DNA of 51,170 nt, taken from the NCBI GenBank assembly GCA_043778555.1, contig JAYWFY010000059.1, forward strand, positions 1 through 51,170. Reading direction: 5' to 3'. The position numbers were made by a program, and so were the translations under genes. Source of the DNA: a bacterium (GTDB taxonomy: Bacteria; Patescibacteriota; JACMRA01). Below the pieces are notes generated by a model. The model had not been told where the DNA came from, searched no databases, and worked only from the letters and a program-made list of their open reading frames with translations. Below are positions 22,458 through 34,524 of this stretch, piece by piece; positions within the stretch are counted from its first letter, which is position 1; the number at the start of each line of letters is the position of its first letter.

Positions 22458-22653
22458 TTGACCCTTGTTAATTCAAACCCCTAAAAGACGTACTTACTTA
22501 ATTGTTGTACGGCTTTTTTACTATGGTAGAAATTTGCTAGAAATTTTAAATCTCCCCAAAGCTGGCGCTTTGACCCTCTTTGACAAGAGGGTGATTTGGC
22601 TTTTTATATTTTGATTGACAAGTAGCTTGATCTTTGCAACACTTCTATATATT

Positions 22654-24720
22654 ATGCCTACTAATCTTGAAACCATTAAACACAATATTACTCACGGGAA
22701 CACTCAAAGGTTGAGGAATATATTTGCAGGATTTGGCAACGGTTTAGACGCAAAAGATGTTTGTGATTTGTCTAATATTCACCCGTGGTTTTGTCATAAT
22801 CTTGAGTCATTTTATAATAAGCAAAAGGCTGGTCATTATGAATACTTTAACAATCAAATTAGCAACTATAAAATGGTTGACACTTGTGCAGGTGAGTTTG
22901 AGGCTTATACTCCATTTTTTTATAGTACCAAAAAAGTTGATAGTGATCCAGCTGGTAATGAGGCGACCGATGATTTGTACAATACAGGCAAAGCCAATTT
23001 TGATTATTTGATAGCGAAGGCACAAAAAGACGAGCGATCTTTAGTACTTGACGCTGTGTTATTTAATTGTTATGATAAGGTATTTGTCCAAAAACGTCGC
23101 TCAGATCGTAAATTCTTGCCCAACTGCTGGGGCTTGGTTGGTGGACACTTTATACGAAGTCAAAAAAGATTAAACTTAAGTACTATTTTTGAAGTACTAA
23201 ATGGAATTATTTATGAAGATACAAGCTGGAATCTATCAGAAATCAAATCAGTATTGGAAATTCGTGATTGGGAAAATGACGGTCAAAAAATGCGTACTGT
23301 CGTTTTTGAGACAATAGTCAAGGGTAATTTGGATCATCCAAAGCTAGATATGAACAAAGTCAAAGGCTTCTTATGGATTGACAAAGATGATCTGGAGATT
23401 TTTAGATTCAATCTCAATTATGAAGAAAATCTAATGTACAAGGTTTGTAAAAAAGCACTTGAGCTTCACCATCAACCTCAAAAAGTAATTATTCTTGGTT
23501 CTGGTCCGATTCGCATTGGGCAAGGTGTAGAATTTGACTATCTCACAGTTCATGCTGTTCAAGCTCTCCAAAAACGAGGTATCAAAGCCATTATTATTAA
23601 CAACAATCCTGAGACAGTAAGCACCGATTATAATACTTCCGACAGATTATATTTCGAGCCTTTGACTCCAGAGTTTGTAGCTCGGGTTGTGGAAAATGAA
23701 AAAGAAGGGTTGCTGGGAGTAATAGCTCAATTTGGTGGGCAGACGGCGGTCAATCTCGCTAGACCTCTAGAAGAAATGGGAATTAAAGTCTTGGGCACTA
23801 CAGCGAACGCTATTGACCTTTCTGAAGATCGTGAACTCACTGGAGGATTGATGGTAAAACTCAATTACAAAATGCCAAAATGGGACATAACTTACAAAAA
23901 AAATGAAGTGATAGATAAGTGCAAATCGGTTGGTTTCCCAGTTTTGATAAGACCATCTTTTGTGCTTGGTGGTGAAGGAATGCGAATAGTGTATAGCGAG
24001 ATTGAAGTGGAAACTTATTTACAGGATTATTTTGTAGGGGTAGAAACTTTTGACAAAGCCCTTTTGATAGATAAGTTTCTTGACGATGCCATCGAAGTAG
24101 ATGTGGACTTTATTACTGACGGTAAAAAAACTTATTGCTTTATCATGGAACAGCTCGACAAAGCTGGTGTACATTCTGGTGACAGTGCAAGCGTCTTTCC
24201 TTCACAAAGCCTTAGCCGAGAGATCATGGACAAACTGGTCGAAATGGCGCAAAAAATCGCCAAAGCGTTTCAGGTCATTGGCATTGGTAACTTGCAATGT
24301 GCAATCAAAAATAATGAGATCTACATCATAGAAGTCAATCCTCGAGCTAGTCGTACCGTTCCGTTTATTTCTAAGTGCCTAGGGTTTTCTTTGGCAGAAT
24401 TAGCTACCAACGTAATAATGGGTAGTGAGTTGCCAGAGTTTGACTTTGATTTAGATTATTACAAAAATCCAGTTTATGCCGAAACTCTAAAACAAAAAAT
24501 AGTTCACAAAGAACATCCAGTCGCTCACATTGCTCCAAAGTTTGTTGCTATCAAGTGGCCAGTGTTTTGTACGCATAAACTCATTGGAGTCAAATCTGAC
24601 CTTGGTCCGCTGATGAAATCTACTGGTGAAGCGATGACGGTTGGTAAAACCTTTGCAGAAGCCAAAGCCAAATGGGGCGAAGACAGGAATTTTGACAATG
24701 TAGGAGTTTATGAGGTGTAA
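22654..24720 (+). CDS. carB: C-terminal half of carbamoyl-phosphate synthase large subunit with an inserted Nudix-like domain and no MGS domain
   Basis: YKMVDTCAGEFEA, GSGPIRIGQGVEFDY, NPETVSTD, GVHSGDS, EVNPRASRT, LGPLMKSTGE; insert KVFVQKRRSDRKFLPNCWGLVGGH. Confidence 0.88.
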   Translation: MPTNLETIKHNITHGNTQRLRNIFAGFGNGLDAKDVCDLSNIHPWFCHNLESFYNKQKAGHYEYFNNQISNYKMVDTCAGEFEAYTPFFYSTKKVDSDPAGNEATDDLYNTGKANFDYLIAKAQKDERSLVLDAVLFNCYDKVFVQKRRSDRKFLPNCWGLVGGHFIRSQKRLNLSTIFEVLNGIIYEDTSWNLSEIKSVLEIRDWENDGQKMRTVVFETIVKGNLDHPKLDMNKVKGFLWIDKDDLEIFRFNLNYEENLMYKVCKKALELHHQPQKVIILGSGPIRIGQGVEFDYLTVHAVQALQKRGIKAIIINNNPETVSTDYNTSDRLYFEPLTPEFVARVVENEKEGLLGVIAQFGGQTAVNLARPLEEMGIKVLGTTANAIDLSEDRELTGGLMVKLNYKMPKWDITYKKNEVIDKCKSVGFPVLIRPSFVLGGEGMRIVYSEIEVETYLQDYFVGVETFDKALLIDKFLDDAIEVDVDFITDGKKTYCFIMEQLDKAGVHSGDSASVFPSQSLSREIMDKLVEMAQKIAKAFQVIGIGNLQCAIKNNEIYIIEVNPRASRTVPFISKCLGFSLAELATNVIMGSELPEFDFDLDYYKNPVYAETLKQKIVHKEHPVAHIAPKFVAIKWPVFCTHKLIGVKSDLGPLMKSTGEAMTVGKTFAEAKAKWGEDRNFDNVGVYEV

Positions 24721-24774
24721 ACAAGCTTAAAAAACTTTTGTACTGATTTTTTTGTAGATTAAAGAAGCACAGAA

Positions 24775-24818
24775 TTCATTTCTATTGCTAGAGGTACGTG
24801 GGTATTCCCAATTTGTAC
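24775..24818 (-). ncRNA. Candidate small structured RNA, copy 1 (orphan)
   Basis: Promoter TTGACA (24852-24847)-17-TACAGT (24829-24824); TACAAAT-TGGG-aata-CCCA-cGTA then TCTA-gcaa-TAGA; covaries with the copy at 27070-27114. Confidence 0.55.
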
Positions 24819-24857
24819 TATACACTGTAACAAACAACCAAAACCCTGTCAAATAAT

Positions 24858-24959
24858 ATGCTAGAATCAATCACAATCAAAAACTTTAAAGCGATACAAA
24901 GCGAAAAAGGTCTGACACTATCAGGATTAAAATATCATTATACAACTAAACCTTTTTAA
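24858..24959 (+). pseudogene. N-terminal stub of an AAA/OLD-like ABC ATPase
   Basis: MLESITIKNFKAIQSEKGLTLSGL..., which stops before Walker A. Confidence 0.5.
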
Positions 24960-25034
24960 ATAAATCAAATGCTTGACTAAAAAACCTATCGCTGTGATAA
25001 TGATAAGATATAATAAAACCTAATTTTAGTCGAA

Positions 25035-25791
25035 ATGCCAACTGAAGAAATATCATTTAAAGATAGAATTATAAATAGTATATTTTTTAGTTTCGTGAGA
25101 CTAGATTCAAAATGGAAATACCTTAAACCTTTTCAAGATAAAGTAAATGGTAAGTGGGGGATATAGACTTTTATATTTACATTCAACAGTAATACACCCA
25201 AAATTTGAATTTACCGATTATTTTACGTGTCTTGGATGTGATAAAACTCAGAGTGTTATTTACTATGATATTGATATAGATCAAAATCTTAAGCATCAAA
25301 CAAAAGCATTTAAACCAAAATTTGAATTTTTTAGTAATTATTCTGGTATTGCGTACGCTCGAGTAAAATTTGGAAATAAGGTAGGATACATAAAACAGGA
25401 TGGAACTTACCTTATCGAGCCTAAATTTGAAGAGGGAAATAATTTCGATTATGATTTTGCAGCTGTAAAATTAAATAATAAATGGAGTTTTGTTAAACCT
25501 AACGGATCATATCTATTCGCATTAAAATTTGATGACGCAATGAATTTTAGTCTGGAAGGATATACCGAAGGTTTTGCACCAGTAAAACTAAATGAAAAAT
25601 GGGGGTATTTAAAAATTGATGGAACATACCTTATCGAGCCAAAATTTAAAAGAGCTTATCATTTTAAACGCAATGGATATGGTGCAGTTTTATACAATGG
25701 TGAAGAAAAAAGTGTAGATTCAAGAGGGAAAATACTTGATATAGATTATTATAATGAACCTGATATAGATTATGGTAATTATATATTATAG
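25035..25791 (+). pseudogene. WG (KWG) repeat protein, frameshifted at a G5 run
   Basis: Repeats KVGYI..DG.YLIEPKF and KWGYL; the ATG 25035 frame ends VNGKWGI* and joins the main frame if one G at 25156-25160 is removed. Confidence 0.7.
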
Positions 25792-25831
25792 TCTTGATAA
25801 TTACTTTTTTAAAATTTCAAATTAAATTTAT

Positions 25832-26659
25832 ATGAGTATCCAACCCCAACCCAACAGATATATTCAGTTAGCTAAATTTCAGAAAATTGAAAATTTTAGA
25901 CTTGATACAATTTTAAAAGGAAATATTTATATGTCTTCTATTTTAAAAGGCTTTAATGACCCATATGAGTTTAGTATGGATTTTTCATTTGCAGACACTG
26001 CTGATGCTGGTGAATTAGTTAGTGCGTTTATAAACAGAATAAAAATTCCAGAAAGCAATGGTAATAGGTTCTCTGAAGTAATTTCTCGTTATATAAGATC
26101 TAAAGCTAGAATAAGTTGTTTTTGTTTTATAGGTGAAATCGAAACGAAAGGCAAAGGTTATTCAAAACCAAGTGAAGGCTATGAAATATCAAAAGTTTTT
26201 CTAGATCATAAGCACTGGAGTCAGTATGGTGATAATCATAAAGGTATGTGTATTTTGTATAATATTCCTACTAATAATGAAATAATAACAAAATTGCATA
26301 AAGTAAAATATGTTGATACTATTCCAAAATTAGAAAAAGAAGATTTTTTCTTTGATGAGGGTAAAATAAATATTGAAAAAACAATTGAAAATATAGGTGA
26401 CAAAATGATGTCTAATAAATCAAAATGTTGGATATCTGAAGGTGAATGTAGATTTTATCACAGCGAAAACAGCCAAGACTTAAATATGACAGGTTTTAAA
26501 AATTGTATTCAAGCAATTATCTTTGGATTAGAGTGTGATGTTGAATCCGAAACGATAAAGCTTTTCATAAAAGAACTAAAATCAAAAGATGAAAGTATCC
26601 AATTTATAAAACTAGTTAAAAATAGTAAATCGTTTGAGCCTGAACTAAGAGAATTATAA
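25832..26659 (+). CDS. DUF2971-family protein
   Basis: FNDPYE, ISCF, WSQYGDNHKGMC, K..CW..E.E.R. Confidence 0.8.
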   Translation: MSIQPQPNRYIQLAKFQKIENFRLDTILKGNIYMSSILKGFNDPYEFSMDFSFADTADAGELVSAFINRIKIPESNGNRFSEVISRYIRSKARISCFCFIGEIETKGKGYSKPSEGYEISKVFLDHKHWSQYGDNHKGMCILYNIPTNNEIITKLHKVKYVDTIPKLEKEDFFFDEGKINIEKTIENIGDKMMSNKSKCWISEGECRFYHSENSQDLNMTGFKNCIQAIIFGLECDVESETIKLFIKELKSKDESIQFIKLVKNSKSFEPELREL

Positions 26660-26671
26660 AACCCTATCTAT

Positions 26672-27073
26672 ATGAACGTACAAAAAACTAAAGATTATAT
26701 AAAATGGCATAGCCTTAAGACAAAAATAAACACTAGATCGAAGCTTGCAACATACAAAAAACGAGATGTATTTTGGTGCCATCTTGGTGAAAATATTGGT
26801 AATGAAGAGGATGGTAAAGGTCAAGACTTTTTGCGACCAGTTGTAGTTCTAAAAGTTTATAACAATGAATTTTGCCTTATTGCTCCTTTATCTTCCAAAG
26901 TCAAAACGAATAAATATTATGTTAATTTTATGTTTAACAAAAAACCACAATCTGCATTGATAAGTCAAATTAAATCTATTGATGTTCGTCGTTTTCACTA
27001 CAAAATGGGAACTCTTAGTCAGCAGGATTACACGCTGATTCTAACGGAATTTATAAAATCTCTCCAAAATTAA
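26672..27073 (+). CDS. PemK/MazF-family endoribonuclease toxin with no adjacent protein antitoxin
   Basis: RDVFWCHLGENIGNEEDGKG...RPVVVL...APLSS...SQIKSIDVRRF. Confidence 0.9.
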   Translation: MNVQKTKDYIKWHSLKTKINTRSKLATYKKRDVFWCHLGENIGNEEDGKGQDFLRPVVVLKVYNNEFCLIAPLSSKVKTNKYYVNFMFNKKPQSALISQIKSIDVRRFHYKMGTLSQQDYTLILTEFIKSLQN

Positions 27074-27114
27074 TCACCCCTTGCGGGGTTACATGTGGCT
27101 AGTGCCAATTTGTA
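27070..27114 (-). ncRNA. Candidate small structured RNA, copy 2, convergent with the PemK/MazF gene
   Basis: Promoter TTGACA (27148-27143)-17-TAAAAT (27125-27120); TACAAAT-TGGC-acta-GCCA-caTGTA then ACCCC-gcaa-GGGGT. Confidence 0.6.
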
Positions 27115-27170
27115 AACTAATTTTACCAAACTCAATCAATCCTGTCAAATTCTAATTTTAACCCATCCAT

Positions 27171-29207
27171 ATGAACGTACAAAAAACTCCTATTTATCAA
27201 TTCCTCGAAGGTGCCGGCAAATCCTTTGTGATTCCTGTGTATCAGCGTGACTACGCATGGACTATCGCCAACTGCCAAAAACTCTGGGACGATATTGTCT
27301 TTATGAAGGCTAATAGCAAACAAAGCCATTTTCTTGGTACTATCGTGACTATTGCCAATGATTTTCAAGAATATCTGGTGATCGATGGTCAGCAGCGGTT
27401 GACTTCTACCTCGCTTCTTCTTTTGGCTCTTCACAATTTTCTTAATTCTAAGAAGAATAAAACCCCGATTGAATCATCTTTGGCAGAACAGGTGTTAGAT
27501 TTTTTGATCAACAAGTATTCTCAAGATCAAAGTAAAAGAATAAGGCTCAAACCCAACAAAGGTGACAAGGATTTTTATGAGCAGCTTTACGACGGCAATG
27601 TCAACAATCTCGTCGATAGTAATATCAATTCCAATTACAACTATTTTTATAAGCAGATTGAGAAAAATATCTTGACACCTGTGGAGCTGTTTCAATTGTT
27701 TCAGCGACTAGAGATTGTGTTGATCTCGCTTGATCGAGGCGTAGATGATCCTCAGTTGATATTTGAAAGCCTCAACAGTACAGGAGTTGATCTCAATGAC
27801 GGCGATTTGATCCGCAACTATATCTTGATGGATTTACCGCCACAACAGCAGGAAAATCTGTACGCCAGCTACTGGATCAAGATCGAAAACTGTGTCAATG
27901 ACGTGGCCGAGTTTGTGAGAGTGTTTTTGATGCACCGCAACCAAGAAAATGTCCGCAAAACCAATCGAGAAATCTATAGCGAATTTCGGCTATACTGCGA
28001 AAGTAAATTTGCCAAAAACCCTGAGAAAACCTTGTCTGAAATGCTGGAGTTTGCTCAGATATACAGCTACTTTATATGTACGTCCAAGTTTCCAGATGCC
28101 AAGATTGGAGTTGCCCTCCATCGTATCTTTAAGCTCGAGGCTACGATTTGTTATCCATATATGCTAGATTTATTTTACGATTACAAAAAAGGTTTGGTCG
28201 GAGCTAATGTTGTTTTAAAGGCTTTGACGCTGATAGAATCCTACATTTTCCGTAAGGTAATTGCCGATGGCTCTACTCAAGGACTCAACAAATTCTTTTT
28301 GACACTATCCAAAGATCTCAAGAAAGACAAAAATTGGCAGAGCAAATACATGGATATTTTTTGTTCAATATTAATCAACCGTTCTTTCACACAAAAGTTC
28401 CCAACCGATGAGGAGTTTGTATTAGCCTTACAAGAAAAAGAAGTCTACAAATACCAGTCCAAAAATCGCAATTTACTTCTACATTCTCTTGAAAATCACA
28501 ATTCAGCATACAAGATTGATAGTGACGATTTGACCATTGAACACATTATGCCGCAGTCTTTGACAGCTGAGTGGAAAGCCAAATTGGGTACGAATTGGGC
28601 AGAGATTCACCGCAAATACCTACATACACTGGGCAATCTCTCACTGACTGCCAAGAATGCCGAGCTTGCCAATAGCGACTTTGCAACCAAACAAAAAATA
28701 GACTTTCAATCTTCAAAGCTGAAACTCAACTTTGATCTCGGCGGTAAGAACTGGAACGAAAAGACAATTGTTATGAGAGCAAGTAACCTAGCCCATGAAG
28801 CTATCCAAATCTGGCCTTATCCAATCAGTAAAATCGTAGTCAAAGTCAAAGAAAATGAGATTTATAATCTAGAAACCGAGTTTAATCCTACCAACAAAAA
28901 GCCTATCAAGTTTTACTTTGGGTTAGAATCTATGAATGTCAAAGCTTGGAAAGATCTGTTATCTATTTTGTGTAGCTACTTTTATATCCAATCGCCAACA
29001 GAGTTTAAAGCCTTGATCAATAGTCCAAAATTCTTCAAATATTTTTCGTTTGAAGGCAACAATAGGACACTAAAATCTCCGATCAAGTTTGCCACTGGAT
29101 ACTATGTTGAAAGTAATAAAAGTGCCTCAGATATTCTAGCAATACTATCCAAAATGTGTGACTTTTTGAAGTTTGATAAAACAAAAATACAGGTACAGGT
29201 AGAGTAA
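27171..29207 (+). CDS. GmrSD-like type IV restriction endonuclease (DUF262 + DUF1524 HNH) with C-terminal extension
   Basis: IPVYQRDYAW, VIDGQQRLT, IFESLNSTG, TIEHIMPQ, HTLGNL. Confidence 0.92.
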   Translation: MNVQKTPIYQFLEGAGKSFVIPVYQRDYAWTIANCQKLWDDIVFMKANSKQSHFLGTIVTIANDFQEYLVIDGQQRLTSTSLLLLALHNFLNSKKNKTPIESSLAEQVLDFLINKYSQDQSKRIRLKPNKGDKDFYEQLYDGNVNNLVDSNINSNYNYFYKQIEKNILTPVELFQLFQRLEIVLISLDRGVDDPQLIFESLNSTGVDLNDGDLIRNYILMDLPPQQQENLYASYWIKIENCVNDVAEFVRVFLMHRNQENVRKTNREIYSEFRLYCESKFAKNPEKTLSEMLEFAQIYSYFICTSKFPDAKIGVALHRIFKLEATICYPYMLDLFYDYKKGLVGANVVLKALTLIESYIFRKVIADGSTQGLNKFFLTLSKDLKKDKNWQSKYMDIFCSILINRSFTQKFPTDEEFVLALQEKEVYKYQSKNRNLLLHSLENHNSAYKIDSDDLTIEHIMPQSLTAEWKAKLGTNWAEIHRKYLHTLGNLSLTAKNAELANSDFATKQKIDFQSSKLKLNFDLGGKNWNEKTIVMRASNLAHEAIQIWPYPISKIVVKVKENEIYNLETEFNPTNKKPIKFYFGLESMNVKAWKDLLSILCSYFYIQSPTEFKALINSPKFFKYFSFEGNNRTLKSPIKFATGYYVESNKSASDILAILSKMCDFLKFDKTKIQVQVE

Positions 29208-33615: not shown

Positions 33616-34524
33616 ATGATAAAAAAAAATAACAAAAATCCACAATTCAATATTCCTCCATCCAAAATCCTAGCGTTAGTTTTAGCTATATTTCTAATAA
33701 TTAGCATTCCATTTGGGGTTGTACAGTTTTTTCTTCATACGGATAGTCAGACTGACATTTCACGCTCTCTAGAGGAGGATAAGCAAAGACAACTCAAATT
33801 TGAGTTTCAAAAAAATATGCTGACTACCAAAATTGAAGCAGAGAACAATCAGCTTGGATTTACGTCAACTTTTGACAATTATAAAATTAACAAAAGCCCA
33901 GACTCAAAGTGGCAAATAAACTGGCAAACCAACTTTGGCGATCTTAATTTTGAACTTAACTCACAAGATGCGCCAATAAATGTAGAAAACTTTGTTAGAC
34001 TAAATACTCGCAGTGCTTACAAAAATACTGTCATTCATAGAATAGTCAAGCAAGATAATGTCAATATTATTCAAGGTGGTGATTTTGACAAATTGGATGG
34101 AACAGGTGGACAGTCAGCGTACTATCTTAGTGAACAATTGGATAATTTGATTCCAGATGAAAACTGGCAAACCAAACCAGATATTGAATTAGAAAGTGGT
34201 ATAACTAAAGGTGGTTTAGTTCCAAATACTCAATACTACAAAAACTTTAATAGTCAAACAGGAGAAATAGAATATCCCAAAGGGTTAGTACTTATAGCCA
34301 AAAAGAAATATCCAGATTCTGCCAGCTCACAATTTTTCATCACGCTAGATAAAACAATTTTGCCTGCACAATATACAGTTATAGGTAAAGTAACGGATGA
34401 AACAATTAATACACTCGATAAAACTAATCGAGAGGTAGGCGTAGAGTATGACTCCAAAAATCCAAGTGATGGTTTTCCAAATAAAGAGATCAAAATTTTG
34501 AATACAGGAGTCAAAAAAGTGTAG
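33616..34524 (+). CDS. Membrane-anchored cyclophilin-type peptidyl-prolyl isomerase
   Basis: TM then AP.NVENF, HRIV...IIQGGD...GTGG, SASSQFFI, YTVIGKV. Confidence 0.9.
   Translation: MIKKNNKNPQFNIPPSKILALVLAIFLIISIPFGVVQFFLHTDSQTDISRSLEEDKQRQLKFEFQKNMLTTKIEAENNQLGFTSTFDNYKINKSPDSKWQINWQTNFGDLNFELNSQDAPINVENFVRLNTRSAYKNTVIHRIVKQDNVNIIQGGDFDKLDGTGGQSAYYLSEQLDNLIPDENWQTKPDIELESGITKGGLVPNTQYYKNFNSQTGEIEYPKGLVLIAKKKYPDSASSQFFITLDKTILPAQYTVIGKVTDETINTLDKTNREVGVEYDSKNPSDGFPNKEIKILNTGVKKV

Follow-up and report, generated by a model that had tools for sequence, protein, structure and literature searches.

A GmrSD gene start fused to a MazF-type toxin: probable scar of a recombination event that brought a toxin–RNA pair into a defence locus of a Patescibacteriota genome

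Why should two unrelated proteins encoded next to each other begin with the same six residues? The question arises in a 51,170-nucleotide contig (JAYWFY010000059.1 of assembly GCA_043778555.1, Patescibacteriota; hereafter the window), where a PemK/MazF-like toxin open reading frame (ORF) and a gene of the GmrSD nuclease family both start with MNVQKT. The gene order is WG-repeat gene, DUF2971 gene, toxin ORF and GmrSD gene (coordinates in Table 1), and PADLOC links DUF2971 and GmrSD to candidate defence proteins. As an earlier note on this DNA had described, an exact 20-mer stands at 26670-26689 and again at 27169-27188, the two copies being 499 bp apart, and the 499-bp unit contains the toxin, a putative small RNA and the promoter of that RNA (27148-27120) and nothing else, with no other ORF. 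The note had also proposed that the unit inserted in one piece at the GmrSD start, borrowed its initiation region and could excise cleanly. Our analysis suggests a more ordinary origin: the MazF-type toxin is fused in frame to an additional copy of the GmrSD start, and this copy is probably the scar left when one recombination event introduced the toxin, along with the RNA that is likely its antitoxin, at a DUF2971–GmrSD site.

We first consider whether the repeat is genuine. Single contigs from three runs of one study (X1, X2 and X3, of which X1 and X2 may be the samples behind the assembly) cross the unit with 0 differences from the window. The X1 contig spans 24500-28106, and the X2 (24648-27199) and X3 (26288-27199) contigs each cross the toxin and both repeat copies. 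The identical toxin protein is recorded on 10 contigs. No further copy of the 20-mer occurs in the window at up to 3 mismatches, for a chance mean of 0.02 and two matches in 0 of 100 shuffles, and the genome as a whole (964 kb in 66 contigs) has just these two. These results effectively refute an assembly chimera and also a match of start regions by chance or convergence, even though two of the three runs may come from the assembled samples; convergence is further opposed by the toxin relatives described below, in which the MNVQKT start was not found.

The repeat reaches beyond the exact core to 27 nt at 93% identity, with 2 mismatches (from 26663 and 27162), which bears out the similarity claimed earlier for the context upstream of the two ATG codons. 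Exact repeats of at least 20 nt within 2 kb number 17 in the genome, so that such repeats are rare and this one is not unique of its kind. Since CCC at positions -12 to -4 is present in just 15 of the 730 ORFs of the genome, we ruled out a generic start-codon bias as the cause of the similar C-rich upstream context. This context is thus inherited rather than generic, identifying the left copy as a GmrSD start region. A third partial copy at 26749 (14 nt, 93%) was taken as a chance match in A-rich sequence.

Which of the two families owns the start? MNVQKTPIY opens all eight of the closest GmrSD clusters (85-100% identity), and a start of the form M[NQK][VI][QNK] is found in 88 of the 120 GmrSD homologues among the matches listed. 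By contrast, M[NQ]VQ begins the toxin at 1 of 173 dereplicated toxin loci, namely the window locus itself. The comparison indicates that the start is native to GmrSD and borrowed by the toxin, and not one that both families carry independently. The 90% cluster of the toxin has two other members, starting MSAINMPIIKKSKDY and MSTINMPIIKKTKDY, and the nearest toxin relative begins MSTINMPIIK-KT-KDY. Against P0007, the cluster member with the MSTINMPIIKKTKDY start, residues 1-4 of the toxin all differ, identity begins at K5-T6, and 14 differences are spread over the next 129 residues. The alignment shows that the ten native residues at the toxin N-terminus are gone, that MNVQ has taken their place and that the junction falls within the K-T codons common to both proteins. 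A single-protein scan of genome contigs found no relative, and metagenome and genome alignment scans for the native toxin gave nothing beyond 22-45% relatives.

A site that lacks the unit is present, in a related strain, in one of the runs. In X3, a contig at depth 18.7 joins the 3′ end of DUF2971 to GmrSD (26660 to 27170, with 9 different letters at the joint) and matches GmrSD over 44 letters, including bases past the repeat; the filled allele stands beside it at depth 19.2. The empty site that the earlier note had suggested looking for therefore exists, as a diverged haplotype and not as a revertant: the contig differs from the window DUF2971 at 49 of 373 nt (13%), which marks it as a separate haplotype rather than the window allele after excision. 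Its GmrSD allele, too, appears to have diverged. P0013, from the DUF2971 cluster, shows 24 differences, placed in the same half as those of the empty contig, and is probably the product of the DUF2971 gene of this haplotype. Another member, P0014, is a mosaic of a variant 5′ half and the 3′ half of the window; together with P0015, it provides recombinant DUF2971 alleles that show homologous exchange across the island. In a minor X2 contig, which is not a full donor, GmrSD follows a related promoter, and the DNA further upstream is different, so that the slot takes more than one occupant. Clean excision through the repeats is possible on paper, and none was seen: the contig joints of X1, X2 and X3 include no precise 499-bp skip, contigs being prone to drop rare variants and circles. 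A DNA search of four other genomes of the genus yielded no syntenic DUF2971–GmrSD locus, and GmrSD was not found in the same four genomes with the window query. Separately, contig joints from 27113 or 27122 to 24828 in X2 and X3 hint that in other strains the slot has another RNA allele and perhaps also a toxin.

Repeats flanking the toxin are uncommon across its relatives. We started from 230 full-length toxin hits with flanks, which became 173 loci after 57 near-duplicates were dropped; 25 weak hits (L240-L264) and hits without flanks or with stops, including L046 with a 16-nt repeat, were left out before the counts. When the 93 nt before the toxin core were aligned to the 250 nt after the stop, a repeat scoring at least 34 was present at 11 of the 173 loci, against 0.25% of 10,316 cross-locus pairs. 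Tandem toxins account for five of the 11 (L040, L065, L192, L194 and L199). The remaining six, from 168 non-tandem loci, are the window locus, L030, L212, L224, L215 and L100, with repeats of 16 to more than 90 nt that are often imperfect, allele-like and without common length or sequence. At L030, a 27-29-nt repeat takes in the promoter of the RNA together with the opening codons of a methyltransferase half; at L212, a repeat of about 98 nt with 3 mismatches covers the radC promoter and 7 codons, with no in-frame fusion. Duplication of the start of the downstream gene was seen at 3 of 173 loci (L020, L030 and L212), and we rejected on this count a general rule that these toxins copy the start of the gene behind them.

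Signs of a dedicated mobility apparatus were likewise lacking. The PemK ORF is alone in the unit, with no transposase or recombinase gene; no terminal inverted repeats lie at the unit ends among the best 25 of 181 inverted pairs (longest first); no common att core was found among the toxin loci; and viral contigs contain no exact match to the 19-mer. The only tyrosine recombinase match of the genome is XerC/D-like, lies 18.5 kb away and falls below the integron-integrase cut-off. Thus, of the one-unit insertion envisaged earlier, the borrowed start and the empty allele stand, whereas a dedicated insertion or excision mechanism has left no sign. The repeat is most likely a rare and variable by-product, an ordinary recombination scar and not the mark of a jumping gene. 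As an observation apart, a cyclophilin-like ORF (a label that we presume) at window 33616-34524 has an imperfect flanking repeat of about 45 nt, the top score among the 730 ORFs of the genome.

How might such a scar arise? Incoming DNA, plausibly taken up from outside, would have carried the toxin, the RNA, its promoter and GmrSD. Its right side would have paired with the resident GmrSD, and its left side would have been joined where a handful of bases in the K-T codons are identical, by homology-facilitated illegitimate recombination. In the product, the toxin would be headed by the start of the resident GmrSD and GmrSD by that of the donor, a proposal that would account for two repeat copies that are identical in codons and different in 7-10 bases upstream. 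Ordinary homologous recombination in the flanking DNA would now carry the block from strain to strain. Genes for ComEC and DprA are present in the genome, and natural, com-dependent transformation has been shown in Saccharibacteria, according to the accessible part of PMC10633639. Recombination with an anchor plus few bases is described, in the accessible part of PMC6382021, for competent Acinetobacter baylyi, Streptococcus pneumoniae and Pseudomonas stutzeri. The window case would resemble it in the gain of foreign DNA, a competent-type cell (ComEC and DprA here), a homologous anchor at one end and identity over a few bases at the other, and differs in being read from end products only.

Several points weigh against this origin. 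No donor molecule, in which a toxin with its native start precedes RNA, promoter and GmrSD, was seen. The empty haplotype, with its 49 of 373 nt differences in DUF2971, is a cousin and not the direct recipient, and its upstream spacer exactly matches neither repeat copy. The microhomology at K-T comes from the proteins P0001 and P0007, which are available without surrounding DNA. A chromosomal deletion between two GmrSD copies yields the same end product, and a 27-nt duplication followed by two later mutations also fits. Finally, the repeat excess is modest, at 6 of 168 toxin loci versus 6 of 729 ordinary ORFs of the genome (P = 0.014), and 13 of 422 neighbour ORFs, some being toxins, also score.

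The main rival to a scar of DNA uptake would have the repeat born within one chromosome, from an island in which two GmrSD starts (a tandem duplication or two alleles) surrounded the toxin and RNA, by deletion between the K-T codons of the first GmrSD and those of the toxin. It predicts an identical sequence, and it sits well with the many remnants of deletion in the island (at 24762-24818 an orphan RNA, and at 24858 an ATPase gene reduced to its first ~25 codons) and with tandem toxin duplications at 5 of the 11 repeat-flanked loci. However, it needs a two-GmrSD intermediate that is unobserved, the assembled genome having one GmrSD, and the simple DUF2971–GmrSD haplotype sits in the same run as the filled one; we regard this course of events as possible but rather unlikely. 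We find it harder to believe in a non-autonomous cassette moved in trans by a transposase or site-specific recombinase, with the repeat as a target-site duplication or as an att core aimed at gene starts. The minimal content of the unit, the exact restoration of GmrSD that recombination between the copies would bring about, the three duplicated downstream starts and the frequent position of modules directly before a host gene start would all suit such a cassette. This improbable explanation is already weakened by the 162 of 173 loci without a flanking repeat and the variable lengths and sequences at the others, by a unit devoid of recombinase gene and, in the inverted pairs inspected, of terminal inverted repeats, and by the negative results for a precise-skip joint in the three runs and for the 19-mer in viral contigs.

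The direction of change could also be reversed, with the filled state ancestral and the empty haplotype produced by loss through the repeats, which would indeed permit clean loss. This would leave the GmrSD start of the toxin unexplained, and it fits poorly with the different spacer and the 13% diverged DUF2971 3′ half of the empty haplotype and with decay at other loci, which removes the toxin and keeps the RNA; we consider it very unlikely. The gain of a toxin–RNA pair by one recombination event at the GmrSD start is thus the origin that we favour, and the features involved are collected in Table 1.

Table 1 Features of the toxin–RNA unit and its neighbours (window coordinates)
Feature	Position	Strand	Remarks
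DUF2971 gene, upstream neighbour	25832-26659	+	PADLOC PDC-S31-like candidate defence protein; alleles mosaic between strains
Left repeat copy	26663-26689 (exact 20-mer 26670-26689)	+	GmrSD-type start context and MNVQKT codons, now heading the toxin
PemK/MazF-fold endoribonuclease toxin (by family and fold)	26672-27073	+	133 aa; extra N-terminal helix (residues 4-20)
Probable fusion point	26682-26689	+	K5-T6 codons common to GmrSD start (Q-KT-P) and native toxin (K-KT-KDY); ~8-nt microhomology deduced from protein only
Putative small RNA (~48 nt, approximate ends)	27066-27113	-	Two hairpins
RNA terminator-like hairpin	27089-27076	-	A/U tail over toxin stop codon
RNA hairpin 1	27107-27096	-	4-bp stem, tetraloop
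Sigma-70-type RNA promoter	27120-27148	-	TTGACA-17-TAAAAT, extended -10 TG
Right repeat copy	27162-27188 (exact 20-mer 27169-27188)	+	Working GmrSD start
GmrSD-family (DUF262/DUF1524-type) nuclease gene	27171-29207	+	Intact, 678 aa

The cargo, the toxin–RNA pair, is of more interest than the repeat. The toxin has a Pfam PemK hit and the invariant R55-P56, and its predicted structure (pLDDT 86.7) is a MazF fold (match E 5e-8, TM 0.65) with an added N-terminal helix, in which W12 and K16 are invariant. Neither a promoter of its own nor a MazE partner was found for it, and DUF2971 lies 12 nt upstream. Across 85 family and phylum loci, the toxin is preceded by no near ORF at 18, by a large ORF at 38 and by a small ORF at 29; none of the 29 small ORFs has an antitoxin Pfam family, and 19 are without any hit. 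The same genome (G000) has two further PemK-like toxins, at C37:11634-12085, with a matching RNA, and at C66:2175-2582, with a reverse promoter and a different-looking RNA.

The promoter of the putative RNA is the best of 25 promoter-like sites in the scanned region. By a criterion of at least 10 of the 12 bases of the sigma-70 boxes, the toxin is followed by a reverse-strand promoter at 25 of the 28 loci of the family and at 46 of the 57 from metagenomes; the corresponding numbers for forward-strand promoters are 1 and 2. In an alignment of 35 RNAs, pairing in hairpin 1 reaches 90%, with 37 double-sided changes, above all 500 shuffles and all slid controls, a figure that relatedness of the RNAs can inflate. 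At E ≤ 1, a model made from the aligned RNAs matches all 12 family loci that were held out and 14 of the 50 phylum loci, and at E ≤ 0.01 it matches 15 of the 62; its matches lie opposite the toxin 3′ end in 26 of 27 cases. Toxin and RNA occur together in 16 of 26 family genomes, toxin only in 1, RNA only in 1 and neither in 8, counts that include genomes on which the model was trained, that are kin rather than independent and that are incomplete. We also examined 11 RNA copies, about half of those without an intact toxin directly upstream. Remnants of the toxin 3′ end are kept by 3 of them, in one case truncated by the end of the contig; another copy accompanies a module as its second RNA, and the last 7 are free of toxin remnants. 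At L003, the toxin is, by our own reading, internally deleted. Retention of the RNA where the toxin is lost is the order expected of an antitoxin, and not of clean excision. Points on the other side are that the phylum-level model misses 36 of 50 loci, that genome G009 has the toxin and no RNA match, and that expression of the RNA, toxicity and neutralisation are putative. Nevertheless, sequence conservation supports the view that toxin and RNA act as one module across relatives. The earlier note had drawn this view from the repeat, which alone is weak evidence; the conservation data are its real support.

RNAs and modules of this kind appeared in several other settings. Directly after carB, at window 24762-24853 on the reverse strand, lies another RNA of this type (the orphan RNA mentioned above), which has a promoter to itself and no toxin. 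The relic beside it, at 24858-24959 on the forward strand, is what remains of an ATPase gene, its ~25 opening codons; it starts MLESITIKNFKAI and has an intact relative at L157 directly upstream of a PemK toxin. Another orphan RNA, at C65:1885-1942 of G000, retains a toxin 3′ remnant. The gene carB itself seems to be split in two in this genus (window 22615-24720 and L024); the window ORF is the second part, with an extra segment of ~150 aa that has no Pfam hit and presumably a NUDIX-like character, and at L024 a toxin–RNA pair lies between the two parts. A restriction-modification methyltransferase gene is seemingly split at the same point in two genera, with toxin–RNA modules in the gap (L003, 1194-2347; L030, 546-1952); at L003, the gap also holds a second putative RNA and a gene that we take to be DUF3800-like. 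In an Aliarcobacter record (L212, 1190-2890), a module lies on either side of radC, the upstream one duplicating the radC promoter and first 7 codons. At L022, L030 and L121, the -35 box of the RNA overlaps the start codon of a downstream long ORF (ATGTCAA read backwards), such that some gene starts double as RNA promoter.

Ordinary as the recombination may be, the repeat marks the edges of the DNA that travelled, namely the toxin body, the RNA and the RNA promoter. A promoterless toxin would have gained expression by taking over the start of its neighbour, in a genome nearly without Shine-Dalgarno sites (such motifs are at 9 of 730 ORF starts in G000, and T is at -1 in 484 of 730). MazF is the textbook example of a toxin held by a protein antitoxin; a widespread MazF clade with a tiny, independently transcribed RNA, if real, would bring a new layout to RNA-antitoxin systems. 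More speculatively, and somewhat short of an even bet, MazF-family toxins of Patescibacteria-type and Campylobacterota genomes might form a large undescribed class neutralised by one ~45-nt, two-hairpin RNA with a convergent promoter, a 0.5-kb module that would spread without transposase by capturing the starts of host defence genes, the window locus being a snapshot with filled and empty strains.

The RNA is likely the antitoxin of the MazF-type toxin, in a layout unlike classic type I, II or III. The transcript of the defence operon would serve for translation of the toxin, and the RNA, made from a promoter of its own, would hold the toxin in check. It might do so by binding the protein, as in type III systems, an option that we rate about evenly for and against; antisense action on the toxin 3′ untranslated region (UTR), as in type I, seems rather unlikely, and some other way unlikely. 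Compared with type II MazEF/PemIK (B. subtilis EndoA, 4mdx; S. aureus MazF, 4mzp), the window toxin shares the PemK hit, the MazF fold and R55-P56, whereas it has no adjacent MazE or PemI gene, carries the extra N-terminal helix and is followed by a conserved RNA gene.

The pemK RNA motif of Rfam reportedly originates from Weinberg et al. 2017 and is said to be distributed in Bacillota. In the accessible part of 10.1101/2024.10.12.618037, where it is named, the likeness is that of an RNA motif called after its association with a pemK gene; a term search of the main text of PMC5737381 found no description of it (0 hits). The difference is that the window RNA and its relatives have no covariance-model match, Rfam giving none in the window (E ≤ 5), at 15 related loci (E ≤ 1) or at 20 Bacillota loci (gathering threshold). 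Conceptual overlap with this motif is possible and may bear on novelty. A literature search with little subscription coverage found no description of a MazF toxin with a convergent RNA, or of such a module in Patescibacteria.

The convergent type I systems of Gram-positive bacteria, as presented in the accessible part of PMC8167048, share the convergent layout, and the window RNA is fully complementary to the transcript past the toxin stop. Since no plus-strand terminator was found there, read-through of the toxin transcript over the RNA is likely, in which case the RNA would lie antisense to the 3′ UTR; elsewhere, in the toxin leader and coding sequence, no stretch longer than 6 nt is complementary to the RNA body. 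The window system differs in that its toxin is a 133-aa protein of an RNase family and not a small membrane peptide, and in that the coding overlap is a few bases. Type III offers the other comparison. The fold of ToxN is itself MazF/Kid-like, and the 32 matches listed for the fold of the window toxin are all MazF proteins and not ToxN. The likeness to type III lies in an RNase-type toxin paired with a short structured non-coding RNA in place of a protein antitoxin. In the accessible parts of 10.1101/2025.04.15.648962 and PMC8167048, type III RNAs (ToxIN, AbiQ, CptIN, TenpIN and AbiF/RCd22) are tandem repeats upstream of the toxin, on the same strand and co-transcribed with it, whereas the window RNA is single, unrepeated, downstream, on the opposite strand and under its own promoter. 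Judged by these likenesses and differences, the toxin–RNA pair is likely a new variant of RNA-controlled toxin-antitoxin systems.

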